The position numbers and the translations under genes were made by a program. 64,000 nt of DNA. It comes from an uncultured bacterium. GTDB taxonomy: Bacteria > Bacteroidota > Ignavibacteria > Kapaibacteriales > UBA2268. Below, in pieces: positions 3,687 through 60,376 of the stretch. The stretch's first letter is position 1. Every line of letters begins with the position of its first letter. The stretch covers positions 3,052,640-3,116,639 of the forward strand of contig OW818654.1 in assembly GCA_942492935.1 (NCBI GenBank). The letters are read 5' to 3'. Under the pieces are notes generated by a model. The model was not told the origin of the DNA. It made no database searches and saw only the letters and a program-made list of their open reading frames with translations.

Positions 3687-6600
3687 ATGTTCAAAAATTC
3701 AATTTACTTAGTATCATTCTTTATTGCAATTTCATTATTCTCACAAGTCAGCAATCAAATCAGCTGGCAAGGTATTCTTCAAGATGCCCAGGGCAATAAT
3801 CTTAATGGAACATTTAATATTAATGTTAAAGTTTTCAACTCAGAGTTTGGCGGAATGACAATGTGGCAAGAGACCCATCTCAATAAAAATATTGAAAATG
3901 GTTTTGTCAACTTACAATTGGGTAGTGTTTATCCATTCACTCTAAATTTCAAAGAAAACTATTGGCTTGAATTTACTATTAATGAAGGTACACCACTGAA
4001 TAGAATAAAAATGTCATCAGTACCTTATGCTAATTATGCACTGAATTCAGGCAATACCGGTTGGGGTTTAACTGGTAATGATGGAACAGAGACAAATATA
4101 AATTTCATTGGAACAACAGATAATCAAGGATTAGACTTTCGAACTTTCTATAAATTAAATCTTCGTTTAACTACCCAAGGACAACTTGAATTTCATAACA
4201 CTGGCAACTCAATATTTATTGGTGAAGGTGCTGGAGATAATGATGATTTAAGTGATAATTATAATTCATTTGTTGGCTTCCAATCAGGAAAATCAAACAC
4301 TGATGGTTATCATAATAATGCATTTGGTGCTTTATCGCTTAATGATAATATTTCTGGAACAAGCAATAATGCATTTGGTTTTAGTGCATTAAGAAATAAT
4401 ATTGATGGGTCTAATAATTCAGCTTTCGGCGAATCTTCCTTACAATCAAATGTGTCAGGAAATTTCAATACTGCATTTGGTGCATCTTCATTAGTATTTT
4501 CTACATCGGGTTCAGGAAATACTTCTATTGGTGCAGTTTCACTATTAAATAATTCAACTGGTTCCTATAATGTAGCAATAGGAAAAGATGCATTATATTC
4601 TAATAACAAAGGAGATTCTACCGTAGCAATTGGTTTTAGAGCAATGTTTTATATCTATAATCAAAATACTGCATTTACAAGTTATAGTACTGCAATTGGA
4701 ACTGAAGCATTGAGAGGTTCGTCAACTCCTTTGAATAATACTGGTATTGAAAATACAGCAATTGGCTTTAAAACACTTTTGAATAATAGTTCTGGTTTTG
4801 GCAATACAGGTGTAGGAACAAAAGTTTTGATAGATAATACAACAGGTGATATAAATGCTGGATTTGGAACTTATGCTCTAAATGCAAATACAGTAGGGAA
4901 TAATAATAGTGCATTTGGTGGTAGAGCATTAATATCTAACAAGTCTGGAGATAATAATACTGCAATAGGTTCTGGAACAATGCTATTTAATCTAACAGGT
5001 AATTCTAATATAGCAATTGGAAATGATGCACTTACATATAATAATAGTGCCGATTCAATCATTGCAATTGGTTTTAGAGCAATGTTTTATGCAAATAATT
5101 CTGAAAATCTAACATCAACTGAAAATACAGCAATTGGTACAGAAGCCTTGAGAGGTTCTGTAATTGCATCAAATAATACCGGTACCGGAAATACAGTTGT
5201 TGGATTTAAATCTATGATAAGCAACACTTCTGGTTATCAAAACTCTGCATTAGGGGTTTATACATTATTTTCAAATACAACAGGGTATAGAAATTCAGCA
5301 ATTGGCTTTGAAGCATTAAAAAATAATACTACAGGACATAGTAACTCTGCATTTGGTTATAATTCTCTCAAAAACAATAGTTTAGGTGATAATAACTCAG
5401 CATTTGGAAAAAGTAGTTTAATTTCAAACACTACAGGTAGGAACAATACAGCCATCGGCTCATCATCCTTAAATACAAATTCTTCGGGCAACAACAATAT
5501 TGCAATTGGTTTGCTTTCCCAGTATTCCAACGATACTTCATCTTATAACTTATCAATAGGTAATTTATCTTTATTCAATAATAAATCGGGCAAACGTAAT
5601 ATCGCTATAGGTGATTCATCTCTCTACACATTGGGATTACAATCTGATATACTCATTGATAATAATATTGCAATTGGTTTTAAATCTTTAAAAAAACTTG
5701 ATTTTTATGGAGCTGAAGGAAATATTGCAATAGGTTCTTTTTCTTTGAGCAACTTAAAAAATGGTTTTTACAATATTGCAATTGGATTAGACGCAATGTT
5801 AAATTCAGATTCAGCTTATTCATCTATTGCTATTGGATTCAATTCATTATTAGATAACAATGGTGCCAATAATATTGCAATTGGCACAAACTCACTTCGT
5901 TCAAATACAATTGGAGAATATAATATAGCCATTGGAGAACATTCTCTTTACGTTAATGAAGAAGGGTTTGAGAATATTTCTATGGGAGCTTATTCTGGGG
6001 CAAAAATTGGTAGTAAGAACATTGTAATTGGACATGAATCTGGTAGTAAGGGATTATTGGGTTTTGCACCAGCCATTTTTGATGGTTGTACTTTGATAGG
6101 AAACAATATAAGGGTTGCTGATTCTATTGCTAATAGTTCTGCTTTAGGTTTTTATGCTTCTGTTTTTGATAGCAACCAGATAAGAATTGGAAATTGGGAT
6201 GTTGAAAGTATAGGTGGTTATACTAATTGGACAAATCTTTCAGATGGAAGATTCAAGAAGAACATAAATGAAAATGTTCCTGGATTAAGTTTCATAAAAA
6301 AATTGAGAACCATTACTTACAATTTAGATACTGAATCAATTAAGAAAGCACTAAATTTGCCTGATTCATTAAAATATCTATATAACAATCCAAATAAATC
6401 AAAAATATTACAAACGGGATTTATTGCACAAGAAGTGGAAGAAGCTGCAAAACAAATCGGATTTGACTTCAGCGGTGTTGATAAACCAAAAAATGAAAAA
6501 GGTTTCTATGGCTTGCGTTATGCTGAATTTGTTGTTCCATTAGTAAAAGCAGTACAAGAGCAACAAAGTATTATTGAAATGCAAAACAAGAAAATTGAAT

Positions 6601-6698
6601 TACAGAATGAAAAAATAAATAATCAACAAAGTCAAATTCAAGATTTAGAAAATAAATATCAACAATTAATGAATATTATTTCAAACCAAAATAAATAG
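3687..6698 (+). CDS. Secreted tail-fibre-like protein 1. Conserved N-domain, ~16-17-aa Asn/Gly-rich repeats (N.A.G..SL..N..G) and a C-terminal intramolecular chaperone / peptidase S74-like domain with a coiled coil.
   Basis: Signal peptide. N-domain ISWQGILQDAQGNNLNG...MWQETH...NGFVNLQLGSVYPF...YWLEF. Long run of NTAIG/SAFG repeats. C-terminus WTNLSDGRFKKNI...GLSFIKKLRTITY...GFIAQEVEEAAKQIGFDFSGVDKP...YGLRYAEFVVPLVKAVQEQQ, then heptad-like QNKKIELQNEKINNQQSQIQDLENKYQQL. Confidence 0.85.
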   Translation: MFKNSIYLVSFFIAISLFSQVSNQISWQGILQDAQGNNLNGTFNINVKVFNSEFGGMTMWQETHLNKNIENGFVNLQLGSVYPFTLNFKENYWLEFTINEGTPLNRIKMSSVPYANYALNSGNTGWGLTGNDGTETNINFIGTTDNQGLDFRTFYKLNLRLTTQGQLEFHNTGNSIFIGEGAGDNDDLSDNYNSFVGFQSGKSNTDGYHNNAFGALSLNDNISGTSNNAFGFSALRNNIDGSNNSAFGESSLQSNVSGNFNTAFGASSLVFSTSGSGNTSIGAVSLLNNSTGSYNVAIGKDALYSNNKGDSTVAIGFRAMFYIYNQNTAFTSYSTAIGTEALRGSSTPLNNTGIENTAIGFKTLLNNSSGFGNTGVGTKVLIDNTTGDINAGFGTYALNANTVGNNNSAFGGRALISNKSGDNNTAIGSGTMLFNLTGNSNIAIGNDALTYNNSADSIIAIGFRAMFYANNSENLTSTENTAIGTEALRGSVIASNNTGTGNTVVGFKSMISNTSGYQNSALGVYTLFSNTTGYRNSAIGFEALKNNTTGHSNSAFGYNSLKNNSLGDNNSAFGKSSLISNTTGRNNTAIGSSSLNTNSSGNNNIAIGLLSQYSNDTSSYNLSIGNLSLFNNKSGKRNIAIGDSSLYTLGLQSDILIDNNIAIGFKSLKKLDFYGAEGNIAIGSFSLSNLKNGFYNIAIGLDAMLNSDSAYSSIAIGFNSLLDNNGANNIAIGTNSLRSNTIGEYNIAIGEHSLYVNEEGFENISMGAYSGAKIGSKNIVIGHESGSKGLLGFAPAIFDGCTLIGNNIRVADSIANSSALGFYASVFDSNQIRIGNWDVESIGGYTNWTNLSDGRFKKNINENVPGLSFIKKLRTITYNLDTESIKKALNLPDSLKYLYNNPNKSKILQTGFIAQEVEEAAKQIGFDFSGVDKPKNEKGFYGLRYAEFVVPLVKAVQEQQSIIEMQNKKIELQNEKINNQQSQIQDLENKYQQLMNIISNQNK

Positions 6699-6704
6699 GA
6701 AATT

Positions 6705-9700
6705 ATGAAAAAAATCTTTACCCTTTTTATGTTTATACTTAGTATAAATCTAATTTCGCAAGTCAGCAATCAGATTAGTTGGCAAGGAATTCTACAAGAT
6801 GCTCAAGGCAATAATCTTAATGGCACATACAACATTAATGTTAAAATTTTTCGTGTACAGTTTGATGGTGGAGTACTTTGGCAAGAAACTCATTTTAACA
6901 AAAACATTGAGAATGGCTATGTAAATTTAATTTTAGGAAGTGTTAATCCATTTGATTTAGATTTCACGGAAACTTATTGGCTAGAATTTTCTGTTAATGG
7001 CGGAAATCCTTTAAGCAGAATAAAAATGACTTCTGTTCCTTATGCAAATTACGCATTAAATGTCCCAGACCCGGGTTGGAGTTTAACAGGAAATTCAGGC
7101 ACTCAAAGTGATACTAATTTTATTGGAACAATAGATAGCAATAATTTGGATTTTCGAACAAACAATATTTTGAATCTTAGATTGACAACAAAAGGTCAGC
7201 TTGAGTTCCATAATACAGGAAATTCAATTTTTATTGGTGAAGGTGCAGGTGCAAGTGATGATTTAGTTAATAACGGGAATATTTTTGTTGGATATAAAAG
7301 TGGTACATTGAATACCAATGGCACACACAACATAGGATTAGGTGGTTATTCATTAACTGATAATACAATTGGAGCTGCCAATACCGGACTTGGTTCTTCT
7401 TCATTAAGAAAAAATATTTCCGGCAGTTATAATGTTGCAGTTGGTTCAGGTGCTTTACAGGAAAATAAAGCAAGTTATAATACTGCAGTTGGAACTAATT
7501 CATTAACTTTGAATACTATTGGGTCTGAAAATTCAGCTTTAGGTCAAGATGCTTTATTTAATAATGTTTCCGGTATTGGGTCGGTAGCAATTGGCAGTAA
7601 AGCACTATACACTAATATTTCAGGCGATTCTTTAGTTGCAATAGGTCTCAATGCTATGCAGTATTCAAATAGTTCCGAAAATAAATTTTCATCATTTAAT
7701 ACTGCTGTCGGTACTGAGGCATTAAGGGGTTCTACACCATCCAACAATAATACAGGAACTGAAAATACTGCAATTGGTTTTAAAACACTATCAAATAATT
7801 CAAGTGGAGACGCAAATACCGCTGTTGGGTCTAAATCATTATACAAAAATGCAGTAGGGACTTACAATTCTGGATTTGGTACAAATGCAATTTATTCAAA
7901 TACTGAAGGAAACAGCAATAGTGCTTTGGGAAGTTATTCATTATCTTCGAATACTTTAGGTTCGGACAACATAAGTATCGGAACCAGAGCAATGTTTATG
8001 AATTCAACCGGAAATGCTAATGTTGCGATTGGAAAGGACGCATTAATTTCAAATGTTAGTGGGGATTCAATTGTAGCAATAGGATTCCTTTCTATGTACT
8101 ATGCTAATAACAGCAATAGCTTGTATTCAACGAAAAACACTGCAATTGGGACAATGGCATTAAGAGGTTCTACCACTACTCCAAATAATACCGGAGTAGA
8201 AAATACTGCAATTGGCTTTCAATCATTAATGAGCAATTCAAGTGGTTCAAATAACACAGCAATTGGAAATATGTCTCTGTTAAATAATGAAACAGGGAGT
8301 GATAATATTGCGATTGGAGATAGTGCTGCATTGTTGAATACCACCGGCAGTAAAAATGTTGCTATAGGCAATGGTTCTTTATATTCCAATGTTAGCGGAG
8401 ATTCAATTGTCGCTATTGGTTTTGGTGCTATGTATTATGCTTCGGACTACCCAACTTTAAGTGCAACCCAAAATACTGCTGTTGGAACATTCGCACTAAG
8501 AGGCTCAACAACTCCAAGTAAAAATAATGGCAAATATAATACTGCTATTGGGTTCAAAGCAATGATGAATAATGAATTTGGCCTCAATAATACTGCTCTT
8601 GGTAATATGGCTCTTACTTCTAATACATCTGGAAGGTACAACACAGCTGTTGGTTCAAATTCATTAGAAATGAATACAGAAGGCAATTCAAATGTAGCAA
8701 TAGGTGATTTATCAATGAACCACACTACAATTGGCTCTTATAATACTGCATTAGGTTCATCTTCACTTCTAAATAATACCGAAGGAAACTCAAATGTTGC
8801 TTTGGGGGTTTTATCAATGATGGCAAACACAATTGGTTCAAATAATACTGCATTAGGTACAAGCTCCTTATACAGTAATACAATAGGCAATAATAATATA
8901 TCAATAGGGGACAATTCATTATTTGATAATTCAACGGGTTCAAATAATACAGCAACTGGTACTAAGGCACTCGAATTCAACACTATTGGCAATAACAACT
9001 CTGCTCTTGGCTATCTATCGCTTAATAAAAATACATCAGGTATAAATAATGTTGCTCTTGGTTATAGAACAGTTTATAGTAATACAACTGGCAATTTTAA
9101 TACAGGTGTTGGGTCAGAAGCATTAACGTCAAATAAAACTGGCGAAGAAAATACAGCATTTGGAAGTAATGCTTTATATTCAAATACAACAGCCAGCCGA
9201 AATGTAGCAATTGGTAGTGACGCTCAATTATCTAACACAACCGGACATCACAATTCAGCATTAGGTCATTCAGCACTCGCTTCAAACACCACAGGAAATT
9301 ATAATACGGCAATAGCAAACGAAGTTTTGTATTCTAATACAATGGGACATAACAACACAGGTTTGGGGTATTCAGCATTATACAATAATACTACGGGTAG
9401 TGATAATACTTCAATTGGTTATCAATCATTAAATGCAAACACAAGTGGTGGTGAAAATGTTGCTCTTGGTAGAAGTGCGGGTAGTATTGGAGAAACTAAC
9501 TCTTCGAATACATACATAGGTTTTGATGCAGATAATAATGTTAATTCCTACACAAATAGTACTGCAATTGGTCATACTTCAAGAATTTCATCAGATAATC
9601 AAGTAAGAATAGGTAATTCGTCTGTAACTACAATTGGTGGATATACTAATTGGACAAATCTTTCAGATGCAAAATTTAAAAATAATGTGAGTAATAATGT

Positions 9701-10073
9701 ACCGGGATTAGATTTTATTTTGAAATTAAATCCTGTTACTTACAAACTAAATATTAGTCTTTTGAATTCCTATTTGAATATACCAGATAGTTTAAGAAAC
9801 CTACAAAATGAATCTGCAAAAGCAAATTTACTTCAAACGGGCTTTATTGCTCAAGAAGTGGAAGAAGCGGCAAAGCAAATCGGATTTGACTTTAGCGGTG
9901 TTGATAAACCAAAAAATGACAAAGATTTCTATGGTTTGCGATATGCGGAATTTGTTGTTCCATTAGTAAAAGCAGTTCAAGAACAGCAAAGTATTATTGA
10001 AATGCAAAACAAGAAAATTGAAGAACTTGAAAAGAAACTTGAATTAATAATTAAAAGCATTAAAAATGATTAA
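6705..10073 (+). CDS. Secreted tail-fibre-like protein 2. Same architecture as fibre 1, with a longer repeat core.
   Basis: N-domain ~75% identical to fibre 1. Repeats of the type SGxxNTAxGxxSLxxNTxG throughout. C-terminus WTNLSDAKFKNNV...GFIAQEVEEAAKQIGFDFSGVDKPKNDKDFYGLRYAEFVVPLVKAVQEQQSIIEMQNKKIEELEKKLELIIKSIKND. Start is 7 nt after the fibre 1 stop. Confidence 0.85.
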   Translation: MKKIFTLFMFILSINLISQVSNQISWQGILQDAQGNNLNGTYNINVKIFRVQFDGGVLWQETHFNKNIENGYVNLILGSVNPFDLDFTETYWLEFSVNGGNPLSRIKMTSVPYANYALNVPDPGWSLTGNSGTQSDTNFIGTIDSNNLDFRTNNILNLRLTTKGQLEFHNTGNSIFIGEGAGASDDLVNNGNIFVGYKSGTLNTNGTHNIGLGGYSLTDNTIGAANTGLGSSSLRKNISGSYNVAVGSGALQENKASYNTAVGTNSLTLNTIGSENSALGQDALFNNVSGIGSVAIGSKALYTNISGDSLVAIGLNAMQYSNSSENKFSSFNTAVGTEALRGSTPSNNNTGTENTAIGFKTLSNNSSGDANTAVGSKSLYKNAVGTYNSGFGTNAIYSNTEGNSNSALGSYSLSSNTLGSDNISIGTRAMFMNSTGNANVAIGKDALISNVSGDSIVAIGFLSMYYANNSNSLYSTKNTAIGTMALRGSTTTPNNTGVENTAIGFQSLMSNSSGSNNTAIGNMSLLNNETGSDNIAIGDSAALLNTTGSKNVAIGNGSLYSNVSGDSIVAIGFGAMYYASDYPTLSATQNTAVGTFALRGSTTPSKNNGKYNTAIGFKAMMNNEFGLNNTALGNMALTSNTSGRYNTAVGSNSLEMNTEGNSNVAIGDLSMNHTTIGSYNTALGSSSLLNNTEGNSNVALGVLSMMANTIGSNNTALGTSSLYSNTIGNNNISIGDNSLFDNSTGSNNTATGTKALEFNTIGNNNSALGYLSLNKNTSGINNVALGYRTVYSNTTGNFNTGVGSEALTSNKTGEENTAFGSNALYSNTTASRNVAIGSDAQLSNTTGHHNSALGHSALASNTTGNYNTAIANEVLYSNTMGHNNTGLGYSALYNNTTGSDNTSIGYQSLNANTSGGENVALGRSAGSIGETNSSNTYIGFDADNNVNSYTNSTAIGHTSRISSDNQVRIGNSSVTTIGGYTNWTNLSDAKFKNNVSNNVPGLDFILKLNPVTYKLNISLLNSYLNIPDSLRNLQNESAKANLLQTGFIAQEVEEAAKQIGFDFSGVDKPKNDKDFYGLRYAEFVVPLVKAVQEQQSIIEMQNKKIEELEKKLELIIKSIKND

Positions 10074-10083
10074 AGGTTAAAAA

Positions 10084-13000
10084 ATGAAGAAGTTTATCTT
10101 CCTTTTTTTAGCAATTTTAATTAATTGCACAATTTATGCTCAAATTCCCAATACTATTTCTTGGCAGGGAATTTTGCAAGATGCCAACGGCAATAATTTA
10201 CATGGTTCATATAATTTGACTATTAAATTATATAATATTTCGAGTGGTGGAACAGCATTATGGACAGAAACACATAATTCTGTTTCTATATCAAATGGTT
10301 TAGCTAATTTATCGCTTGGTAGCGTCACTCCATTCAATCTCAATTTCGATAAGCAATATTGGCTTGAAATTACAGTAGGCAATGGAATACCGTTGACAAG
10401 GATAAAATTAACAACTGTGCCATATTCATTTCATTCCAATATTGCAAATTCATTAGCTGGAGGAATTAATGAGACTGACCCAGTTTTTATTGCAAGTCCT
10501 TCATTTGCTATTAATAATACAAATATTAATAATTGGAATACAGCATACTCTTGGGGTAATCATGCTAATCAAGGATATTTGACTTCGTTGAGTGAAACTG
10601 ACCCAGTTTTTATTGCAAGTCCTTCATTTGCTATTAATAATGCAAATATTACAAATTGGAATACGGCTTTTTCTTGGGGAAATCATGCTACTCAAGGATA
10701 TTTGACATCAATGAATGAAATTGACCCAGTTTTTATTGCAAGTCCTTCATTTGCTATTAATAATGCAAATATCACAAATTGGAATACGGCTTTTTCTTGG
10801 GGAAATCATGCTACTCAAGGTTACTTGACTTCAATGAATGAAACTGACCCAGTTTTTAATGTAAGTCCTGCGGCTGAAATTAATAATGTAAATATTAATA
10901 ATTGGAATACGGCTTACAATTGGGGAAATCATGCAAATCAAGGATATTTAACTTCTTATAATGAAACCGATCCAATATATTTTGCAAGTGTTGCAGCAAA
11001 TATTACAAATGAAAATGTTACTAATTGGAATACTGTTTATAGTTGGGGTAATCATGCTAATGAAGGATATTTGACTACATTTACAGAAAGTGATCCAATA
11101 TATATGGCAAGTGCTTCATCAGGAATAACAAATACAAATATAGCAAATTGGAATAATGCTTTTTTTTGGGGAAATCATGCAAATCAAGGATATTTAACTT
11201 CTTATAATGAAACCGACCCAATATATTTTGCAAGTGTTGCAGCAAATATTACAAATGAAAATGTTACTAATTGGAATACTGTTTATAGTTGGGGTAATCA
11301 TGCTAATGAAGGATATTTGACTTCATTTACAGAAAGTGATCTAATATATATGGCAAGTGCTTCATCAGGAATAACAAATACAAATATAGCAAATTGGAAT
11401 AATGCCTATCTTTGGGGGAATCATGCAAATCAAGGATATTTAACTTCTTATAATGAAACCGACCCAATATATTTAGCAAGTGTTGCAGCAAATATTACAA
11501 ATGAAAATGTTACTAATTGGAATGCGGCTTATAATTGGGGAAATCATGCAACTCAAGGATATTTGACTTCATTTACTGAAACTGACCCAGTTTTTAATGT
11601 AAGTCCTGCAGCAATAATTAATAATGTAAATATTAATAATTGGAATACTGCATACTCTTGGGGTAATCATGCTAATCAAGGATATTTGACATCATTTACA
11701 GAAACCGACCCAGTTTTTTTAGTTAGTGCGTCAGCAAATATCACAAATACTTATATAGCAAATTGGAATACTGCATATTTTTGGGGGAACCATGCTACTC
11801 AAGGATATTTGACTTCAATTACAGAAAATGACCCTATTTTCAATACAAGTCCTTCTTCAAGTATCACTTTAACAAATATTGCAAATTGGAACACTGCTTA
11901 TGGCTGGGGCAATCATGCTACTCAAGGATATTTGACTTCATCAACTGAAACTGACCCGTCATGGGGTGGCTCTTTAGATACAGATGGAATTATTTATAGG
12001 TTTGGTAAAGTCGCTCTAGGAATATCTACTCCTAAAGCACTTTTGCATATTAACGAAACTGAATCTGATGGTGGGAATGTCCTTTTTACAGGTACATATA
12101 AATTATCAGATCCTGGACCAGTACCCGATTCAGGAATGGGAACAAGGATGATGTGGTATCCAGATAGAGCAGCATTTAGGGCTGGATTTGTAGAAAATGA
12201 CCAATGGAACAGTAGTAATATTGGATATTATTCAACTGCTTTTTGGGGTCAATACTGTAGCATCAGGTTCTTATTCTACTGCATTGGGCTTTGGAACTAC
12301 AGCATCAGGCTCATATTCTATAGTTGCTGGAGAATCTAATATAGCATCAGGTTCTTATTCTACTGCTTTTGGAAATATTACAGTTGCATCTGGTTTAAAT
12401 TCTACTTCATTTGGAAAAAGTACCACAGCTTCTGGCCACTATTCAACTACTATTGGTGAAAATACTGTTGCTGAATCTGCTTATGAAACTGTGTTAGGTA
12501 GATGGAATTCTGATTACTCGCCAACCAATACAACAGGCTGGAGCAGTTTTGACCGTTTGTTTGTGGTTGGAAATGGTACTGCTTCAAATGCAAGAAGCAA
12601 TGCAATGACTATTTTAAAAAATGGCAAAGTTGGAATTGGAACTGATTTACCTTATAGCTTGCTTCATACTAAAGGATTAGGGACTGGTGAAGGGAATGTA
12701 TTATTTACTGGAACTTATAAGTCAGCTAATCCAGGATTAGCTCCCGATTCTAACGCAGGAACACGCATGATGTGGTACCCTGACAAATCTGCGTTTAGAA
12801 CTGGAACAATTGATGGTAATCAATGGAATACCGGAAATATTGGAAATTATTCTGTGGCAATGGGTTATTCAACAACAGCATCGGGTTCGTATTCTATAGC
12901 AACTGGAGAAAATACTTTTGCTGAATCTTCTTATGAAACTGTGTTAGGTAGATGGAATAGCGACTATACACCAAATTCAACAACAACTTGGAATAGTATT

Positions 13001-14416
13001 GATAGATTGTTTGTAATTGGAAATGGAACTGCTTCAAATACAAGAAGTAATGCACTGACTATTTTAAAAAATGGCAAAGTTGGAATTGGAACTGATTTAC
13101 CTTATGGCTTACTTCATGCTAAAGGTGTAGGGACTGGTGAAGGAAATGTATTATTTACAGGTTCTTATAAGTCAGTTAATCCAGGATTAGCTCCCGATTC
13201 TGGAGCAGGAACACGCATGATGTGGTACCCTGACAAATCTGCGTTTAGAGCTGGAACGGTTGATGGTAGTCAATGGAATACAGCAAACATTGGTGTATTT
13301 TCCACATCAATAGGACATAATAATATAGCATCGGGGCAATATTCTATATCGATGGGGGCTGAAAATGAAGCTACTGGTGTTACTTCAATTGCTTTGGGAA
13401 ATTCTTTGACATCCTCTGGTCTTGCTTCCGTAGCTATGGGTTATCATTCGACAGCATCGGGACAATATTCAACAGCTTTTGGATACGGTAATACTGCATC
13501 AGGTTCTATGTCAGCAGCAATAGGTTATTCTTGCATATCATCGGGATACGCTTCAATTGCAATGGGCGAAAGGACAGAATCATCTGGGTTTCACTCAATA
13601 GCTTTTGGATATATAACCGAAGCATCAGGAGATAAATCAACTGCCATGGGAGCATATACTTTAGCATCTGGATATTATAGTACAGCAGTAGGCAAAAATA
13701 CAGTTGCATCTGGTGATTATTCTATGTCGATTGGCGAGAACGTTAATTCAAAGTCAGCTTATGAGACAGTTATAGGAAGATGGAATGCTGATTATACTCC
13801 AAATTCCACAACAAATTGGAATTCTGCAGACCGCATATTTGTTGTTGGAAATGGTACTGCATCTGCCACGAGAAGTAATGCATTGACAATACTAAAAAAT
13901 GGTAGAGTTGGATTGCAAACTGTAACTAATCCTACATTTGCTCTCGAATTACCAAATAGTGCTACTGATGGGATTGGCAAAGGCAGAGCAAATGCTTGGT
14001 CAACTTATTCTGATGGTAGAATTAAAAGTAAACGCAAATCAATTATTTATGGGTTAAGAGAAATAATGATGCTCAATCCTCTTTATTACTATAAACATAA
14101 TTCAATTATTAAAGATGGCAAAATACAAATTAATGAAGATGGCTCTTATGATATTGGCTTTATTGCTCAAGATGTATATAAGGTTATTCCTGAAATAGTT
14201 TCAGTTCCAAATAATGAGTATTTGGATCTCTGGAGTATGTCTTATGAAAAATTGACTCCTATTTTAGTTAAAGCTATTCAAGAACAACAACAAATTATTG
14301 ATAATCAAAAGAAAAAGAATGATAGTCAAGATATGCTTATTCAAATTCAAAATCAAAAAATTGAGGAACTTGAAAAGAAACTGGAATTATTAATTAAAAG
14401 CATTAAAAATGAATAA
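10084..14416 (+). pseudogene. Tail-fibre-like protein 3 (~1444 aa if contiguous), split by a +1 frameshift into ORFs 10084..12339 and 12197..14416. Has the N-domain, 12 x 41-aa repeats, three ~150-aa modules with ASGxYS repeats, and an S74-like chaperone with a coiled coil.
   Basis: Frame 1 reads ...NIGYYSTAFWGQYCSIRF (nonsense tail). Frame 2 continues ...FGVNTVASGSYSTALGFGTTASGSYS, which matches the later repeats (GNYSVAMGYSTTASGSYSIATGE). The switch lies in the T5 run at 12240-12244; four T would give one ORF. C-terminus AWSTYSDGRIKSK...GFIAQDVYKVIPEIV...YEKLTPILVKAIQEQQ...EELEKKLELLIKSIKNE. Confidence 0.7.
10471..11947 (+). repeat. In-gene tandem repeat, 12 units of 123 bp (41 aa: ETDPVFIASPSFAINN.NI.NWNTAYSWGNHANQGYLTS). 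Several units are near-identical at the DNA level.
   Basis: Direct reading: the unit recurs every 123 bp from ~10471 to ~11947. For example, the stretch from 10921 recurs almost verbatim from 11167 and 11410. Confidence 0.8.
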
Positions 14417-18624: not shown

Positions 18625-20676
18625 TTAATTTGCATAAGGAATAGTAAATTTGAATTTACTTCCATTGCCTACCTCACTCTCTACCCAAATTCTACCACCA
18701 TGTTTTTCAATAAATTCTTTACATAAAAGCAAACCTAAACCAGTTGATGACTCTCCTTCTGTTCCGGGACGGGAAACTTTTTGGTCAACTTTAAATAATT
18801 TACCAAGTATATCTTCACTCATTCCAATACCTGTATCTTGTATTGTAATGCAAAGTTCACCAACTGTTTTTTCTGCAAAAATAGTAATACTACCTTTTTT
18901 AGGAGTAAATTTAACTGCATTTGAAATCAAATTACGAAATACAGTATTTATCATAGGAATATCAGCAAAAATTTCTAATTCTTCATTTACATTATTAATT
19001 AGCTTGATATCTTTTTGATTCGCAGTTTGTTGAATAATATAAAAATTGCTTTGCACAAGCATATTAAGATTATTTATTTCTGGGTCAAAACTTGTAACCC
19101 CTCTTTTGATTCTCGACCATTCAAGTAGATTTTCGAGTAATTTATACAAACCATCAGCAGACTCTTGCAAACTTCTTGTGAAATCAACTAAGTCCCTCAT
19201 TGTAAAGTCCATGACATCATCTGCCATCATTTTTGTTAAATTTAGAAAACCCGAAAATGGCGATTTTAAATCGTGTGCAATTATCGAGAAGAATTTGTCT
19301 TTTTCAGAATTTGCATTTTCTAATTTTTCTTTAATTTGAGTTAATTCTTCAATTAGTTGATTCTTTTGAAATAGACTATTTTCAATAATTTCTTGAGATT
19401 CTTGTAGCTCTAAAATTAATTGTTCACGTGATTCTTCCATATACTTCTGGTCTGTTACATCATCTTTAATTGCAAGATATTGTGTGATTTCACCTTCACT
19501 ATTAAAAATTGGAGATATTGAAGCTAATTCCCAATAAATTTCACCATTTTTCTTTTTATTTAGAAAATTTCCTCTCCACTCTTTACCTTTACTAATTGTT
19601 TCCCAAATTCCTTTATAGAAATCTCCAGTTTGATGACCCGATTTTAAGACATTTGGATTTTTGCCGATAACTTCATCATAAGTATAACCAGTAAGTTCCG
19701 AGAATTTTTTATTTACATATTGAATATTACCTTTTGTATCTGTAATCACTACCGATGATGTACTTTGCTCAATTGACTGGGATAAAATATGAATTTTTTC
19801 TTCATCTAATTTTCTTTCTGTAATATCTCTATTGCTAACCCTTCTACCATGGTAGCTTCCGTCAGAATCAAAAATAGGTCTGCAAATATGTTGAATGTAT
19901 TTAACTTGTTCATTCTTAGTGATAATTCTAAATTCCAACTCACATGTATTACTACTCTGAATTAGATGATTTTCAGTTACATGGAGCCGAAATTTTGCTT
20001 CGCATTGTGGGTGTAAGATTGCAAATAACAAATCTGGATTTTGATAAAATTCTTGTGGAGAATAACCAGTAATTCTTTCACAAGAAGGTGATATATATTT
20101 AAATTCATTTTCTGGACTTAACCAATACTCCCAATCATACGTATAATCAGCAACAGTTTTAAACCTTTCTTCACTATCTTTTAATTCTCTTTGTAATGTT
20201 TCTAATTCCCAATTTTTCCATTCAAAATCATTGAGCATATTAACTAATTTTTCTTCATTTTCTTTGTCTTGAGAAATGTCAAATACAAACCCAATAAATC
20301 TGGTTATATTACCAGATTCATCACGTATAATATTTGTAAAGTCACGAACCCAAATAAATTTGTTATCAGCTGTTCTCAATCTATATGGTTGGTGGTCAAT
20401 CACAGCTTCTTGTGATTCAGAGCTACTTTTGACTTCATCAACCACTCTTGTAATATCCAAGTCATTAATTAAATTGAAATAATTAATTTCATTAGAATAA
20501 AATGATTCAGGTTTAATTCCAATCAATTTGAATATATTATCAGAAACATACTCAACAGACCAACTCCCATCACTTCTCCAAATAAAAAATGAAATAGGTC
20601 CCGATTTGAATAATTCGAGTTCTAAGAGTTTCTTATCATCTAAATTTAACTTTTTTAAAATACTTACCATAATCAA
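18625..20676 (-). CDS. Cytoplasmic PAS-domain sensor histidine kinase (PAS x3 - HisKA - HATPase_c)
   Basis: H-box FSIIAHDLKSPFSGF. N/G boxes LISNAVKFTPKKG, IQDTGIGMSEDILGKLF, STGLGLLLCKEFIEKHGGRIWVES. Multiple PAS-like segments and no TM helices. No response regulator adjacent. Confidence 0.85.
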   Translation of the reverse strand: MIMVSILKKLNLDDKKLLELELFKSGPISFFIWRSDGSWSVEYVSDNIFKLIGIKPESFYSNEINYFNLINDLDITRVVDEVKSSSESQEAVIDHQPYRLRTADNKFIWVRDFTNIIRDESGNITRFIGFVFDISQDKENEEKLVNMLNDFEWKNWELETLQRELKDSEERFKTVADYTYDWEYWLSPENEFKYISPSCERITGYSPQEFYQNPDLLFAILHPQCEAKFRLHVTENHLIQSSNTCELEFRIITKNEQVKYIQHICRPIFDSDGSYHGRRVSNRDITERKLDEEKIHILSQSIEQSTSSVVITDTKGNIQYVNKKFSELTGYTYDEVIGKNPNVLKSGHQTGDFYKGIWETISKGKEWRGNFLNKKKNGEIYWELASISPIFNSEGEITQYLAIKDDVTDQKYMEESREQLILELQESQEIIENSLFQKNQLIEELTQIKEKLENANSEKDKFFSIIAHDLKSPFSGFLNLTKMMADDVMDFTMRDLVDFTRSLQESADGLYKLLENLLEWSRIKRGVTSFDPEINNLNMLVQSNFYIIQQTANQKDIKLINNVNEELEIFADIPMINTVFRNLISNAVKFTPKKGSITIFAEKTVGELCITIQDTGIGMSEDILGKLFKVDQKVSRPGTEGESSTGLGLLLCKEFIEKHGGRIWVESEVGNGSKFKFTIPYAN

Positions 20677-20805
20677 CTTAAATTTTATTTAATTTATACT
20701 TATTCAAATAACAATTTCAAAAAGTAAATAATCATAAAATTTAAATATACATTAATATTAATATATATGCAAATACAAATCAAAAAAGTTATATTCATAT
20801 TCACT

Positions 20806-21290
20806 TGTTTGTATTATTTACACAAGATGTCCAACACTTTCAAAGTGTTGGACATCTGTAAATACTAAATAACCCAACAAGTGCGGAATGACACCATAAT
20901 AACCGTCATTGTATGTTTGTATTATTAACACAAGATGTCCAACACTTTGAAAGTGTTGGACATCTGCATATATTATATTCCGCATCAAGTATGGAATGCC
21001 ACGAAAAACAAACTGTCATTCTGAACCTGGTTCAGAATCCATATACTATTTATATCATTTTCGAAACAAGATGTCCAACACTTTGAAAGTGTTGGACATC
21101 TGCATATATTATATTCCGCATCAAGTACGGAATGCCACGAAAAACAAACTGTCATTCTGAACTTGGTTCAGAATCCATCTACTATTTATATCATTTTCGA
21201 AACAAGATGTCCAACACTTTGAAAGTGTTGGACATCTGAATATATTATATTCCGCATCAAGTGCGGAATGACAACACTTAAATTAAAGAT
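20806..21290. repeat. Tandem array (4 units, ~136-bp period) of a modular palindromic repeat. Modules: a 33-bp perfect palindrome agatgtccaacacttt-N-aaagtgttggacatct; a hairpin attccgc-loop-gcggaat; a hairpin cattctgaac-NNN-gttcagaatc.
   Basis: The palindrome occurs at 20825-20857, 20929-20961, 21069-21101 and 21205-21237. Flanking text is conserved between units (gcatatattatattccgcatcaagt.cggaatgccacgaaaaacaaactgtcattctgaac.tggttcagaatcca). Confidence 0.85.
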
Positions 21291-22033
21291 TAATAATCAA
21301 ATAATATTTCACCTTCAAAACCAAAATATGGGTTTTTGGGGTCTTTTTGATTAGTACTTGGAATAATAAGTCCAAAATATATACCTAATTCTGTAATTTT
21401 ATAACCTGAAAATGACACTTTAGACGAACCTACAACTAAATCCATTCCATAAGGATTTTCTATTATTGTACTATCTTTTGTCATGATAGTTACTTCAGCA
21501 TTTATCTCAGAGTTAGATGCAAAATCTGAAACATACAGTGGTGAATTAAGTAAATCATATACATTTATATTTATTTTGATTTTGAAGTTTTTTACAGCAT
21601 CAAATCTTAAGAATCCAACATTAAAGTCAATTTCTTTTGCAGAAATATCACAATCAAATTGAAGATAAGTAATTCCCATTGAATAAATAATTTTTGATGT
21701 GATTTTTTCCATAGTAACTGGTTGCCAATTAATAAAATCTCTGTTATTTTTTAGGTCATGAATTTCCCTAAAATCAAAGCCAACAATCTTTCCTTTAGAA
21801 ATTTCTTCTCTTGGAGTATCTACTATTATAACAGTATCTCTAATTGTATCTTTCTTTACTACAATAGTAGTAATAACTATTTTTTTATAATCAACAATTG
21901 TAGTATCAATTGATAATGTATCTCTTTCAAAAGGATTTCTTATTACATTTTCTTCCAATCCTACATTATTATCACAAGATACAACAATTAATAATGTTAA
22001 CAATAATATTATAATATTTATACCTTTATTCAT
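21290..22033 (-). CDS. Hypothetical lipoprotein
   Basis: Signal peptide with a lipobox-like LIVVSC. No identifiable domains. Confidence 0.5.
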   Translation of the reverse strand: MNKGINIIILLLTLLIVVSCDNNVGLEENVIRNPFERDTLSIDTTIVDYKKIVITTIVVKKDTIRDTVIIVDTPREEISKGKIVGFDFREIHDLKNNRDFINWQPVTMEKITSKIIYSMGITYLQFDCDISAKEIDFNVGFLRFDAVKNFKIKININVYDLLNSPLYVSDFASNSEINAEVTIMTKDSTIIENPYGMDLVVGSSKVSFSGYKITELGIYFGLIIPSTNQKDPKNPYFGFEGEILFDY

Positions 22034-23366: not shown

Positions 23367-23930
23367 TTAAGCTCTTAGCTCTTTTAAATATGGTTGTAAA
23401 ATAGATTTCAGTTTTTGTTTCGCCCTGAAAACTCTTGATTTTGCATTTGATAATGAAATATTGCAAGTTTCAGCGATTTCTTCGTAACTTAATCCACTGT
23501 ATTCTCTTAACACGAATGCTTCTCTAAAATCATCATCTATCAATTCTAAAGAACGTGTTATTAAATCAAGCAATTCCTTTTGTTCGTAATTTTGATTTTC
23601 TTGTAACAGAAAATCCAAATCTTCGATAGGAACAGTTGGTCGTTTATCACGTTTGTAATTAAGACATAAATTTCTGGCAATTTTCACAAGGAAGCCGGGA
23701 ATATTTGAGTTCGGCATTTCATTGCTGACATTTTGATAGAATTTAATAAATGCTTCTTGAAAAATGTCCTCAGCCGCTTCTTCATTACCGATAATTCTAT
23801 AGCAATAAGCGTGAAGCATAGATGAATGTCGATTATAAAGTTCCCCAAAAGCTCCATTTGCTTTTTGTTTGTCCTTCCTTAGTATGTCCACTAATTCTAC
23901 GTCACTGTATTTATTGTATGTGTTACCCAT
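23367..23930 (-). CDS. ECF-type RNA polymerase sigma factor (sigma-70 family, regions 2 and 4)
   Basis: Region 2 EDIFQEAFIKFYQN. Region 4 HTH LSYEEIAETCNISLSNAKSRVFRAKQKLKSIL. Confidence 0.85.
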   Translation of the reverse strand: MGNTYNKYSDVELVDILRKDKQKANGAFGELYNRHSSMLHAYCYRIIGNEEAAEDIFQEAFIKFYQNVSNEMPNSNIPGFLVKIARNLCLNYKRDKRPTVPIEDLDFLLQENQNYEQKELLDLITRSLELIDDDFREAFVLREYSGLSYEEIAETCNISLSNAKSRVFRAKQKLKSILQPYLKELRA

Positions 23931-24207
23931 TCACTAAAACATTTTCGTTAATTTTCACCCTTTCAATTGCAAATTACACAAGAAACCTCAAAAAGTTGCA
24001 AATTATTTTTTATTCTGTATAAAAATTGAATTAAAGTAAATTAATAGCCATATTGAAATAAAAATACGTTACTTCAATTATATTATTAAAATTTCAATAT
24101 TTTTTAGAAATCTTTCAAATATAATAAATCCTTGTAGGTCTTTGCTGGATTTCTTGTAACAATATTCATAATTTAGTTGGGAATGGTCTTTGGTAGGGAT
24201 AGCATTT

Positions 24208-24239
24208 AAGTAGAGACAGGTCGCGACCTGTCCCTACTT
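24208..24239. promoter_or_regulatory. GC-rich 32-bp near-perfect palindrome (aagtagagacaggtcgc|gcgacctgtccctactt) upstream of the ECF sigma operon. Possible operator.
   Basis: Seen directly. 16-bp arms with one mismatch, and a GC-rich core in an AT-rich genome. No U-tract in either orientation, so not a canonical terminator. Confidence 0.35.
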
Positions 24240-24451
24240 AAAAAAATTTAAAAAATTCTAATACCAATGTGATTTTCGATTATACTATATATTTTGGATG
24301 ATTTTCAATTATTAATAAATCTGAATATGCACTTACAGATTTATTGATTAGAAAAAAATCTTTTCTAACTTTGCAGTCAAACATCCGATATTTTATAAAT
24401 ATTTAGATGTAATTTTAATAGAAATATCATCATTTACTAAACAAATGATGA

Positions 24452-31059: not shown

Positions 31060-31490
31060 ACCATATTTTAGTCCATATAGACAAAGAGGCAGTTAAAAAA
31101 TTGTCATTCTAAACTCGTTTCAGAATCCATTCCTTAGATTTCGTCATTCCGAAAACAACGTGAGGAATCCAGTGGCTTAGCAATGCATCTATATCGCTCC
31201 TACAGAGCTTTAAAAAGTCAATACATATCCATTATATTAATTTATCGAAACAACATTGCTAAATTCAGAAACCAATTTGTATAGATTACTCAATGGAAGC
31301 TTTATCTCAATAGAATATGGATTCCTCACGGTGTTCGGAATGATAGTAATTTTCCACAATTGTCATTCTGAACTCGTTTCAGAATCAATCTCCTTGTCAT
31401 TTTCAAAAAAGGATGTCCAACACTTTGAAAGTGTTGGACATCTGCATAAGTATAATTCTGAACTCGTTTCAGAATGAAAAGAAGAAACAA
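31060..31490. repeat. Intergenic cluster of the same hairpin modules as 20806-21290. It includes a ~200-bp segment (31144-31343) bounded by inverted ~25-bp copies of the attcc...ggaat module, and one 33-bp palindrome (31411-31443) flanked by two cattctgaa...ttcagaat hairpins.
   Basis: tcattccgaaaacaacgtgaggaatcc (31144-31170) is the reverse complement of ggattcctcacggtgttcggaatga (31319-31343). tcattct.aactcgtttcagaat occurs at 31104, 31364 and 31454. Confidence 0.75.
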
Positions 31491-40870: not shown

Positions 40871-41140
40871 AGTTAACTCTATACGAAAATTTTAAAAATA
40901 TCAAATTGATATAAGATATTTTTAGAACAATTTCAATTCTAAACCAATATGGGACTGGCTCAAAAGGTTATTTAGTTATTTTCCATTTTGAAAGTTGTGA
41001 GAAATTTATATATATTTCAACAACTTAGTATGAAATGGATTCTGAAACAAGTTCAGAATAATACCTTTTGAGACAGCCCCATCTAAATCAAAATTTATTA
41101 TAAAATGTGATTTTTAAAAAAATTATAAAATCACATCAAT

Positions 41141-43186: not shown

Positions 43187-43329
43187 ATTTCACCGATTTG
43201 AATAATATATTTTAAAGTCAAATAAAGTGTAGTAACGTAAATTGTTTTTATTTATTTGCTAATTGAATTAGCAAGTTTAAATATGAAATTCTTAATATTT
43301 TTGCCTTTTAATACTAAGTTGCGTTCAAA

Positions 43330-43530
43330 GATTAAAGATATAAATCATTGAAAATCCCAACGGGATTAAATGTTTGTAACAATAACAAATAAAATATGTA
43401 AAGTCCTCCCTTTGGGGAGGATTTAGGTGGGGTTTTCAATTATTCAATCCCGATGGAATTGCTGGACTTACGGGCATTTTCTTTATTACAATCATGTAAT
43501 CCCTATCGGGATTTTCAAAGAATTTCTTTT
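43330..43530. repeat. Cluster of small aatccc-N4-gggatt hairpins plus a tcctccc-tttg-gggagga hairpin. Related in layout to the interior of the MITE at 57601-57931.
   Basis: aatcccaacgggatt, aatcccgatggaatt and aatccctatcgggatt. The shared context gaaaatccc....gggatta.(c)tgtttgtaa.aataa is also present at 57700. Confidence 0.6.
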
Positions 43531-43629
43531 TTTTTATTTTCTAATTGTTACAAATATGCATTTTTTTCATTCAAATAACGAAGCAATTTTAAAAATATCA
43601 ATTCAGCTGAGCAGTTACTTTTATAAATA

Positions 43630-48169: not shown

Positions 48170-48216
48170 AAAAAATCACTAAACCCTTCCGAAAGTTCCA
48201 AACTTTCGGAAGGGTA
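48170..48216 (-). terminator. Terminator downstream of the LRR gene
   Basis: cccttccgaaagtt-ccaa-aactttcggaaggg, a 14-bp stem, followed on the minus strand by tttagtgattttttt. Confidence 0.55.
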
Positions 48217-48295
48217 TCTTCTCCCAGAAAAAAATAAAGGCTGTAATCTTTCGATTACAACCTTGTGATGAGGATAATACTATTTTTTGTTAAAA

Positions 48296-57385: not shown

Positions 57386-57600
57386 TAATTCAAAAAAAGT
57401 AATTCAAAATCTATCAAGCTAAACACTTTAATATAGACGTTATTTAAATTCTGAAATTTTGTTTTGCTATCAGTTTAATAAAAAATCATAATTCCTAAGA
57501 TATAACTATCAACAGTTTCAATTTAATCTAAATTTATATGTGAATTTACTCTTTGAATAATTATTGATATCAGATCGCTATCATAAGTGATTAATAATAA

Positions 57601-57931
57601 TGTAACTACTCACCCGGTTTATAATTTTAATTGTGCTTTGTAATTTGAATGAAAATTTAAGTATATTTGGAACAAGTGGAAAATTAATAATAAAAAAGAA
57701 ATTCCTTGAAAATCCCGTTAGGGATTACCTGTTTGTAATAAAGAAATTTCCCCTAAGTCCAACAATCCCAGCGGGATTGAATAGTTCAAATACATATTCA
57801 ACACCTACGGCGTTGTTGGAAGTCGAGGGAACTTCATCAGTTACAAACATTAATTCCCGATGGGAATTTCAAGGAATTTTTATAAATAAAACAAGAATTC
57901 AATATTATTTTAATACGGGTGAGTAGTTACA
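57601..57931. mobile_element. 331-bp non-autonomous MITE-like element. 16-bp perfect terminal inverted repeats tgtaactactcacccg / cgggtgagtagttaca, flanked by a 9-bp direct repeat taataataa (putative target-site duplication).
   Basis: Left TIR 57601-57616, right TIR 57916-57931. taataataa at 57592-57600 and again at 57932-57940. The interior carries three (a)atccc-N4-gggatt hairpins. The embedded 97-aa ORF is probably non-coding. Confidence 0.7.
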
Positions 57932-58373: not shown

Positions 58374-58443
58374 AAACTCTTAACTCTTAACTCTTAACTC
58401 TTAACTCTTAACTCTTAACTCTTAACTCTTAACTCTTAACTCT
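58374..58443. repeat. Heptanucleotide microsatellite (taactct) x ~9, about 250 bp upstream of the BNR/T9SS gene
   Basis: aaactct then taactct x 8, read directly. Confidence 0.9.
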
Positions 58444-58690
58444 TTTACTAATTATATCAGAGGAGTAAAAAATATATGATTGCGTTATAAAAGCCCAAGA
58501 CTCGTGATCTCAGGCTTATTGGATCACGTCATTACAATGTTGGCTGTTTAAAACCATCAATTGCAATTTTGTAGCCTTAAGCGACTGCAAAATTAATCAA
58601 ATAAATGGTTTTAAACAAGATATGTTTTTTTAGCATTTTTTATTAATTTATTTTCAAACTCATTTTATTAATATTTATTCAGGTGCAATT

Positions 58691-60076: not shown

Positions 60077-60106
60077 AACAATAAAACAAAAATAAATTTT
60101 TTAGTT

Positions 60107-60140
60107 GTCCTGCACTTTGAAAGTGTAGGACAACTATTTA
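60107..60140. repeat. Variant copy of the 33-bp palindrome (agttgtcctgcacttt-g-aaagtgtaggacaact) with compensatory arm changes. Followed at 60158-60200 by a degenerate cattctgaa hairpin module and a ttttgagacagccc tail also seen at 41062-41085.
   Basis: The centre cactttgaaagtg is identical to the 20825 family. The arms differ (gatgtccaacac versus gttgtcctgcac), but the partner arm changes in step, with one G-T position. Confidence 0.7.
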
Positions 60141-60376
60141 TAGAAGACAGAATACGAGTATGGATTCTGAAACAAGTTACCAATGACATCTTTTGAGACA
60201 GCCCTATGTTTGATTGCCAAATTAGATAAGAGTGAAAAGTCTAAATACTCCGCATTTCATTAAGCACAATGCCAGAAGGGAGAATTTTACATCATATATG
60301 TATGCTGTTACAAGCAACAAATCCCACGAAATGTAAAAACCATTTTAATTTAATTATTATTTGCAAATTATTTTTC

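Follow-up and report, generated by a model that had tools for sequence, protein, structure and literature searches.

The 64-kb stretch of DNA analysed here (contig OW818654.1 of an uncultured bacterium of the Kapabacteria/Ignavibacteria lineage; the whole stretch is called the window below) contains, at positions 20806-21289, an intergenic cluster that is very probably a bacterial interspersed mosaic element (BIME)-like assembly of repetitive extragenic palindromic (REP) sequences, built from two repeat families, amplified fourfold and partly decaying. The term BIME is used for architecture only. One family (P) is a perfect 33-bp palindrome and the other (H) comprises small hairpins tagged with TGTC or CGTC. 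As far as sequence comparison can tell, family P is the putative cognate repeat of a Kapabacteria/Ignavibacteria-type clade of REP-associated tyrosine transposases (RAYT), which are Y1 enzymes with an HUH motif. For the window array this is mostly a clarification, as it would be selfish repeat DNA of an ordinary, known type at the end of an operon and no new regulatory device. A REP/BIME-type mosaic of lineage-specific modules had been proposed in the original prediction for this region, and it is supported by the dispersal of the modules, the presence of family P in related genomes, the arrays flanking RAYT genes and the tags of the H hairpins.

The cluster consists of four units, each arranged around one copy of P:

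20806-21289, unstranded: whole cluster of four homologous units (Tandem Repeats Finder (TRF), repeat families D1/D8, unit alignment)
20806-20913: unit U0, decayed, 108 bp (unit alignment)
20914-21056: unit U1 (unit alignment)
21057-21192: unit U2 (unit alignment)
21193-21289: unit U3, truncated at the array end (unit alignment)
20825-20857, unstranded: P copy 1, centre C
20933-20965, unstranded: P copy 2, centre G
21069-21101, unstranded: P copy 3, centre G
21205-21237, unstranded: P copy 4, centre G

All P copies have the form AGATGTCCAACACTTT[C/G]AAAGTGTTGGACATCT, with C as the central base in the first copy and G in copies 2-4, and the 16/16 complementarity of the arms in the copies at 20825, 20933, 21069 and 21205 agrees with the earlier claim of four perfect palindromes with 16-bp arms. 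Chance matches to P numbered zero in 100 dinucleotide shuffles. With a length of 33 bp and a stem of 16 bp (8-9 bp for the hairpins H1 and H2 described below), the element lies within the 20-40 bp expected of a REP capable of forming a stem-loop, and the predicted hairpin energy is -21.7 kcal/mol as RNA and -15.2 kcal/mol as DNA. Start-to-start distances between the copies are 108, 136 and 136 bp, so that the period of approximately 136 bp claimed for the full units holds after a decayed first unit of 108 bp. TRF reported the same layout as 2.5 copies of a 136-bp period with 97% match (20930-21270), overlapped by 1.8 copies of a 108-bp period with 85% match (20806-21002). Alignment of the units revealed one homologous design, namely a left flank of about 20 nt, P, an 11-nt linker, H2 on the minus strand, 13 nt and H1 on the plus strand, with linkers conserved in all four units and 95% identity of the text between palindromes for units 2 and 3. 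The module order is complete in U1 and U2, whereas U3 stops after H2 and U0 retains only stubs of H2 and H1. The array thereby combines the features that define a BIME, i.e. a REP mosaic with alternating orientation, conserved linkers and tandem reiteration.

The second family is represented in the array by two hairpin types in opposite orientation, in several states of preservation:

21249-21273, minus strand: intact H2, TGTC-ATTCCGCA-CTTGA-TGCGGAAT, 8-bp stem and 5-nt loop, RNA fold -10.5 kcal/mol
21113-21137, minus strand: H2 with one stem mismatch and the tag degenerated to TGGC
20977-21001, minus strand: H2 with two stem mismatches, decaying
20881-20893, minus strand: right-half remnant of H2 (GTGCGGAATGACA) in U0
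21014-21041, plus strand: H1, TGTC-ATTCTGAAC-CTG-GTTCAGAAT-CCA
21150-21177, plus strand: second copy of H1 with loop TTG, RNA fold -8.8 kcal/mol

Written in unit order, H2 reads ATTCCGCA-TCAAG-TGCGGAAT. Its inverted pair attccgc...gcggaat had been assigned to three full units, and it is indeed present in three, but the pairing is perfect only in the last (21249-21269). H1 has the general form ATTCTGAAC-NNN-GTTCAGAAT and was likewise assigned to three full units; this had to be corrected to two, since within the array its stems occur only at 21018-21038 and 21154-21174, U0 having kept no more of it than 'cgtcatt' (20904-20910) and the last unit breaking off before H1. The H1, H2 and H3 hairpins of the window share a 5' tag TGTC (CGTC once), a stem of 8-9 bp starting with ATTC...GAAT and loops of 3-5 nt. 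TGTC tags are found at 21014, 21150, 31102, 31361 and 21270-21273 (minus strand) and the CGTC tag at 31142; a CCA tail follows H1 and H3 (21039, 21175, 31127, 31169), and the tail of H2 is ATA. Both the tag and the combination of stem, loop and tail are those of the CGTC-tagged REPs, in which the tag is often TGTC or CCTC, the 8-9-bp stem begins with A-T/T-A pairs, the loop has 4-5 nt and the tail is CCA (PMC3733652). This class, known from Chlorobi and Bacteroidetes among others, forms mostly inverted dimers and sometimes mosaic clusters interleaved with other repeat families (PMC3733652), and its large clusters are described as 'dimers reiterated in tandem with flanking DNA' (Di Nocera et al. 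2013, PMC3733652). Besides tag, stem and short loop, H1, H2 and H3 have in common with its members, which include Neisseria dRS3 and Rickettsia RPE-4/6, the CCA tail (H1, H3), the inverted dimers and the interleaving with another family; they differ in the H1 loop, which has 3 nt if a ninth pair forms, and in the ATA tail of H2. The H modules thus appear to fit the published TGTC/CGTC-tagged class, matched on the class definition and not on a family consensus. We know of no dedicated transposase for these REPs.

Neither family is confined to the array, as further copies were located elsewhere in the window:

31411-31443, unstranded: fifth P copy (GGATG..., one change at the foot), between convergent genes; repeat family D10
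31102-31475, unstranded: second mosaic locus with H1-type hairpins at 31106, 31365 and 31455, an inverted CGTC/TGTC pair at 31146 (plus) and 31321 (minus), and P at 31411
60103-60135, unstranded: variant palindrome AGTTGTCCTGCACTTTGAAAGTGTAGGACAACT, between convergent genes, fold -23.8 kcal/mol
60162-60187, minus strand: degenerate TGTC-tagged hairpin beside the variant palindrome
41036-41059, minus strand: H1-type hairpin that follows infC, has a CCA tail and is enclosed by a longer inverted repeat (40945-41083)

Around the P copy at 31411, the left flank TCATTTTC.AAA and the right linker GCATA are those of the array units, and therefore the dispersed repeat includes not P alone but a composite of 90 nt or more. 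The variant at 60103 differs from the array P at two arm positions, each altered on both arms, and contains one G.T pair. Hairpins of the H type beyond the array lie at 31106, 31146, 31321, 31365, 31455, 41039 and 60162, which brings the number of loci within 64 kb to three for P and four for H. Gene ends precede all four loci (two between convergent genes, one after infC and one after the operon of an extracytoplasmic function (ECF) sigma factor). The long inverted repeat at 40945-41083 (GGGACTGGCTCAAAAGGT ... ACCTTTTGAGACAGCCCC) encloses the TGTC-type hairpin downstream of infC, and the motif CTTTTGAGACAGCCC recurs beside the hairpins at 60.2 kb (60190-60204) as another co-travelling module.

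To describe family P outside the window, genomes were searched with the 25-nt P core leaving the centre base free, and metagenomes with the P core leaving two stem positions free per arm. The searches yielded 12 genome loci, in uncultured Ignavibacteria, Candidatus Kapaibacterium and similar metagenome-assembled genomes (MAGs) of low G+C content, and 43 metagenome loci, i.e. 55 loci together (cited below by their L numbers); copies were present on several contigs of related MAGs, mixed clusters of P and H also occurred in the relative L006, and none were found in viral contigs. Among 56 distinct copies, stem positions -4 to +11 form Watson-Crick pairs in 80-100%, while the next position outwards pairs in 23%, which is the chance level; pairing thus reaches exactly four positions past the core. 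At positions -3, -2, -1, 4 and 5, which the pattern left unfixed, the same copies are 80-96% complementary with 2-4 different pair types, so that both arms covary. Since pairing ends sharply at 16 bp, the element is a discrete 33-bp hairpin with a fixed stem. Moreover, G.T pairs are no commoner than other mismatches in the stems, suggesting that the symmetry is kept at the DNA level rather than by selection on an RNA helix alone. Copies of P lie in 16 convergent versus 3 divergent contexts (p=0.004) and, in co-directional contexts, 15 of 17 are closer to the stop of the upstream gene (p=0.002), the preference for gene 3' ends and convergent regions that is typical of REPs. About one in five family members (~11 of 56) is followed by a T-run, and some look like true bidirectional terminators. 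At L050 (4071-4105; contig with 50% G+C) a P-type hairpin with A-run and T-run flanks directly follows the 3' end of a tRNA. At L056 (706-738) P is inserted in frame, as 11 codons, in the type IX secretion system (T9SS) C-terminal domain of a cyclophilin. The contigs of L002, L004, L005, L006 and L008 (32-39% G+C, with Ignavibacteria-type repeats) are titled 'uncultured Hyphomicrobiales bacterium', which looks like a mislabel. A literature search with the arm sequences returned unrelated primer matches only.

The connection of P with a transposase was found in the relatives. A search for long palindromes, free of assumptions and applied to all loci, placed six P-type palindromes around a 186-aa open reading frame (ORF) at L037. 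This ORF matches PF01797 (Y1_Tnp) with 30.8 bits against a threshold of 23 and has 707 homologues, of which the best are 50-84% identical and often labelled 'REP element-mobilizing transposase RayT'; those named by organism come mostly from MAGs of Kapabacteria or Ignavibacteria. Nine aligned homologues all preserve the HUH motif (HFHFLV) and the Tyr motif (YIHQNP) without change, and the best fold match of the AlphaFold model in the PDB was 4ER8_A, the E. coli TnpA_REP with a REP hairpin (E=1.8e-6), with IS200/IS605 transposases ranking after it. The proteins of L037 and L071 accordingly carry both the Y1 HUH fold and the motifs by which a RAYT is recognised. The decisive case is L071. The window palindrome occurs unchanged in L004, L006 and L008, and L071 is another contig of the MAG from which these come. 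Tandem copies of AGATGTCCAACACTTT-cc(c)-AAGTGTTGGACATCT, whose 16-nt arms are identical to those of the window P, stand on both sides of the L071 RAYT gene, at least six of them upstream and at least five downstream. One further palindrome lies in frame inside this gene, between the HUH and Tyr motifs. In-frame 33-bp palindromes at the same place in RAYT genes were seen at L071 (8341-8374), L068 (6194-6226) and L058 (10213-10245).

Altogether, 33-bp palindromes adjoin the RAYT gene in seven of the eight gene contexts, of which six have them on either side and L069/70 has them only upstream; in the eighth, P0033 (L057-L062), the palindrome occurs only within the gene. Each RAYT has its own palindrome family (L037, L072, L063/L064, L065-67, L068 and L069/70), and those of L037 and L072 are close variants of the window P. 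In addition, one locus that was present in three samples (L065, L066 and L067) contains two, three and four palindromes, respectively, downstream of the RAYT gene with a period of 77, hence such arrays change copy number in nature. The REPtron arrangement, in which repeat copies flank a RAYT gene, is therefore seen in the relatives and is missing from the window. The suggestion that the elements might be mobilised by a RAYT-type transposase is made plausible by the relatives, whose RAYT genes are flanked by P arrays; for this genome, no such gene was detected among the best 120 of 418-707 RAYT homologues. Arrays of this kind also coincide with assembly breaks: L011/L038 run from position 4914 into Ns within a palindrome array, L071 ends inside an array, and the contigs of L001 and L040 end at or just past a palindrome. 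Because repeats break short-read assemblies, the copy numbers obtained from MAGs are underestimates.

Several alternatives to a REP cluster were weighed. Best placed among them, and still unlikely in our judgement, is that the hairpins are transcript 3'-end elements selected by the host, with the array, through its several hairpins, insulating the neighbouring histidine kinase gene from the ECF operon. Such a role would agree with the strong 3'-end bias of family P, the T-runs after some members, the P-type copy right after a tRNA (L050) and the high stability of the RNA hairpins. However, the window copies have no T-run and the array no terminator-like site, the lack of enrichment for G.T pairs points to symmetry at the DNA level, and palindrome arrays on both sides of RAYT genes, together with in-frame coding insertions, are unlike a pure terminator. 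As a secondary effect, a transcript 3'-end role is compatible with the REP explanation.

We consider it very unlikely that the array is a series of binding sites for a dimeric protein, with the palindrome as operator of either a regulator of the kinase promoter or a nucleoid factor. The perfect dyad does lie upstream of the kinase gene start, G.T pairs are few, and the BIMEs of E. coli bind integration host factor (IHF) and gyrase. Against an operator, arms of 16 bp far exceed a half-site, arms within one genome vary by matched changes (20825 versus 60103) with pairing that stops at 16 bp, and most copies elsewhere are situated after stop codons or between convergent genes and not at promoters. 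The notion that an intergenic segment was simply duplicated in tandem on the spot, without belonging to any dispersed family, can be given hardly any weight: units 2 and 3 are adjacent and 95-97% identical, but both module types recur at three other window loci and P at 55 loci of other genomes. The outcome that the original prediction had named as fatal to it, i.e. modules found in the array only, is thus not the case, given P at 31411 and 60103 and H at further sites.

Equally improbable is the idea that the arms are words resembling DNA uptake signals and arranged as inverted pairs, comparable to the DNA uptake sequence (DUS) pairs at Neisseria terminators. Related taxa do share a conserved word that comes in 'dialects' (the AA, TA, GA and CA variants), and the copies often follow gene ends, but no isolated single arms occur among the matches, the element always measures 33 bp, and the direct association with RAYT explains the data; competence is not known for this lineage. 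A degenerate CRISPR array or integron attC sites, suggested by the regular spacing of the palindromes and, on inspection, by the fit of GTCCAAC/GTTGGAC in the AA variant to the attC consensus RYYYAAC / GTTRRRY, can practically be dismissed, given that the 'spacers' are 95-97% identical between units instead of unique (the reason for which a CRISPR array had been rejected from the outset), that the variants GTCCTAC, GTCCGAC and GTCCCAC break the consensus, that 33 bp is too short for L boxes or extrahelical bases and no cassette ORFs separate the copies, and that no cas or integrase gene was present among the 17 Pfam-matched of 19 nearby ORFs.

The reading as a REP cluster with a RAYT-linked family P also has to accommodate a number of observations that weigh against it. 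The best NCBIfam match of the L037 ORF, NF047646 'REP-associated tyrosine transposase', reached 63.7 bits and did not pass the cut-off of 80, the confidence of the AlphaFold model is moderate (predicted local distance difference test (pLDDT) 67), and the sequence-profile search of the RAYT alignment against the PDB matched 4ER8 only weakly (E=0.08), so that it took the fold search to confirm the relationship. At its foot P has A-R-N-T / A-N-Y-T, in most copies AGAT/ATCT, and does not contain the GT[AG]G of classical REPs. Tblastn with the RAYTs of the relatives gave no match in the window, in keeping with the earlier statement that no RAYT-type transposase is encoded there, and no protein of this genome's 4,494,247-bp contig was among the best 120 of 418-707 homologues of either cognate-type RAYT or in their clusters. 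A phmmer search with approximate IS200 and E. coli RAYT queries found nothing, but was too insensitive, the RAYT of L037 having been found by eye. Because the RAYTs of L037 and L071 are still 66% identical, though their palindromes differ at one or more arm positions, a cognate RAYT of the window's genome would be expected among the listed homologues; judged on the best 120 of 418-707, it is probably absent, degraded or uncalled, and the P copies in this genome may be relics. Finally, a scan of 20400-21500 returned no terminator-like site, no T-run follows the window P copies, and any action of the hairpins as an exonuclease barrier or block to read-through is proposed by analogy.

Comparison with known systems puts these points into perspective. 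With the REP/BIME and RAYT systems (REPtrons) of Enterobacteria and Pseudomonas the elements described here share short extragenic palindromes at gene 3' ends, mosaics with conserved linkers, copies that flank one Y1 HUH transposase gene (here in the relatives) and a copy number that varies between strains. The alternating orientation, here of H2 versus H1, and the tandem reiteration are also common to both (PMC3733652). The differences are that P lacks GT[AG]G and is a perfect symmetric palindrome of 33 bp with a 16-bp stem, in contrast to the bulged imperfect REP, and that the RAYT of the relatives belongs to another clade (THFH, YIHQNP). No resemblance in sequence to the Y and Z REPs of E. 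coli or their linker motifs (S/L/r) is evident in P; homology to these, together with binding of IHF, gyrase or Pol I, also belongs to the description of E. coli BIMEs. The E. coli TnpA_REP needs GT[AG]G for cleavage. The repeats of the published RAYT subclasses 2.6 and 3 are likewise atypical and lack GT[AG]G, and subclass 2.4 shows both 'double-foot' repeats of symmetric form and transposase genes that carry in-frame insertions (PMC6006769), so that the missing GT[AG]G, the symmetry and the in-frame insertion are variations on a known theme.

By motif and description, the RAYT of the relatives seems to resemble TnpA_REP subclass 2.6 (Bertels group 5; Quentin et al. 2018, PMC6006769). Both have the Y motif YIH[QN]NP, measure ~180-190 aa and, in Bacteroidetes-related organisms of the Fibrobacteres-Chlorobi-Bacteroidetes (FCB) group, are flanked by repeats that lack GT[AG]G (PMC6006769). 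The RAYT of the relatives departs from this subclass in its HuH motif, T-H-F-H versus N-H-x-H, and in FQ for WQ; furthermore, the repeats of subclass 2.6 are described as weak, atypical structures (PMC6006769), whereas P forms very strong perfect hairpins. A likeness to the Rickettsia palindromic elements (RPE) exists in the in-frame P of 11 codons in the T9SS domain (L056) and in three RAYT genes, with the difference that in-frame insertion was seen only in related loci and not in the window or its array. Neither Ignavibacteriota nor Kapabacteria are mentioned in PMC6006769 or PMC3733652.

A likely origin of the array can be pictured by analogy with REP/RAYT work in E. coli, Pseudomonas and Stenotrophomonas, on which the P spread, the mechanism of reiteration and the RNA barrier described below are modelled. 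TGTC-tagged hairpins and a P element would first have accumulated downstream of the operon. The composite of ~115-136 bp (H1, flank, P, linker and inverted H2) would then have been reiterated four times head to tail, either through aberrant RAYT processing or because identical palindromes gave rise to unequal recombination or to slippage during replication, and later point changes and deletions in the oldest units would account for the decay of U0 and of the H2 stems. P itself would spread when the RAYT recognises, cuts and rejoins single-stranded DNA hairpins, a process suggested by the flanking arrays and by published work on the E. coli TnpA_REP. Transcription of the minus strand leaves the ECF-sigma operon in the direction of the kinase gene, and in that transcript the four P hairpins, each with about -22 kcal/mol as RNA, together with the smaller ones would be expected to block 3' exonucleases and partly reduce read-through into the kinase gene; they are not canonical intrinsic terminators.

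REP/RAYT biology has been worked out mainly in Proteobacteria and Cyanobacteria, and the present analysis extends it to the little-studied Ignavibacteriota/Kapabacteria lineage. It also supplies concrete candidate pairs, namely the RAYT P0010 with its AGATGTCCAACACTTT-arm palindromes and several sister pairs, which are usable for tests of how hairpins without GTAG are recognised. In practical terms, the palindromes explain the assembly breaks at such sites (L011, L071, L001, L040), and for annotation they serve as a warning that peptides of the 'RCPTLSKCRTS' type and N-terminal extensions of RAYTs are translated repeats. Whether the Ignavibacteriota/Kapabacteria elements amount to a distinct REP-RAYT system, with symmetric GTAG-less repeats of 16-bp stem, a THFH/YIHQNP clade of RAYTs that does not figure in PMC6006769 or PMC3733652, and arrays around the transposase gene and in-frame insertions as a routine feature, is a more doubtful proposition, which we hold only tentatively. 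If true, horizontal spread would follow from the near-identity of the core in contigs that range from 29 to 64% G+C; the REPIN (REP doublet forming a hairpin)-RAYT systems of Proteobacteria are vertically inherited. Likewise if true, the window genome may keep and amplify its repeats without a RAYT, so that host recombination alone would maintain arrays.

The array lies 3' of a three-gene ECF-sigma operon and 5' of a histidine kinase gene with a PAS domain, and all of these genes are on the minus strand:

18625-20676, minus strand: PAS/HisKA/HATPase histidine kinase gene, its start ~130 nt past the other end of the array
21290-22033, minus strand: 247-aa ORF with its stop codon at 21290, final gene of the ECF-sigma operon
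23367-23930, minus strand: ECF sigma gene

The stop codon of the 247-aa ORF is 17 nt from the TGTC tag (21273) of the last H2, the final recognisable module. Of the flanking genes named in the original prediction, the histidine kinase and the ECF sigma factor were confirmed, but neither the 'lipoprotein' nor the 'anti-sigma' ORF had a Pfam match: 17 of the 19 nearby ORFs were matched by Pfam, none of them as cas or integrase, and the unmatched ones were the array-adjacent ORFs of 247 aa and 426 aa. The array lacks the combination of a G+C-rich hairpin and a T-run that characterises intrinsic terminators. In the Rfam search of the window one tRNA alone reached the gathering score, and relaxed thresholds gave spurious microRNA-type matches in the array. 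Promoter-like matches in the P loop (TTGAAA...TATATT, plus strand) are a by-product of the repeat, and the consensus applied is that of sigma-70 from other phyla. The nearest homologue of the 247-aa ORF (57% identity), at L013, is part of the same sigma operon with no array behind it; synteny is broken there, so this locus is little informative.

Other repeats were noticed in the window. A 'double-foot' palindrome of the GTAG...CTAC type, TTTAAGTAGAGACAGGTCGCGACCTGTCCCTACTTAAA, lies at 24205-24242 between the start of the ECF sigma gene and the stop of an FtsW/RodA-family gene, and probably represents a third REP family, this one with the classical GTAG tag; related GTAG palindromes were seen in L012, L036, L046, L002 and L005. 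The palindrome AAACCCTTCCGAAAGTTCCAAACTTTCGGAAGGGTAT at 48181-48217 belongs to a family AACCTTCCGAAGGTTT-T-AAACCTTCGGAAGGTT that is also present in L032, L017 and L002 and beside the RAYT loci L057-62 and L071. A non-coding inverted repeat of ~340 nt with 84% identity has its arms 14 kb apart, at 43300-43640 (plus strand) and 57580-57920 (minus strand), and holds several small ATCCCnnnGGGAT hairpins; the repeat has no Rfam match at gathering score. Very large genes at 3700-14000 contain internal tandem repeats (a 123-nt unit x 12, a 450-nt unit x 2 and many degenerate units of 42-63 nt) and look like genes for repetitive surface or adhesin-like proteins. Finally, ten perfect tandem copies of the heptanucleotide AACTCTT at 58375-58444 could be prone to slippage; the gene that follows ~250 nt downstream of them (58691-60076) is BNR/sortilin-like.

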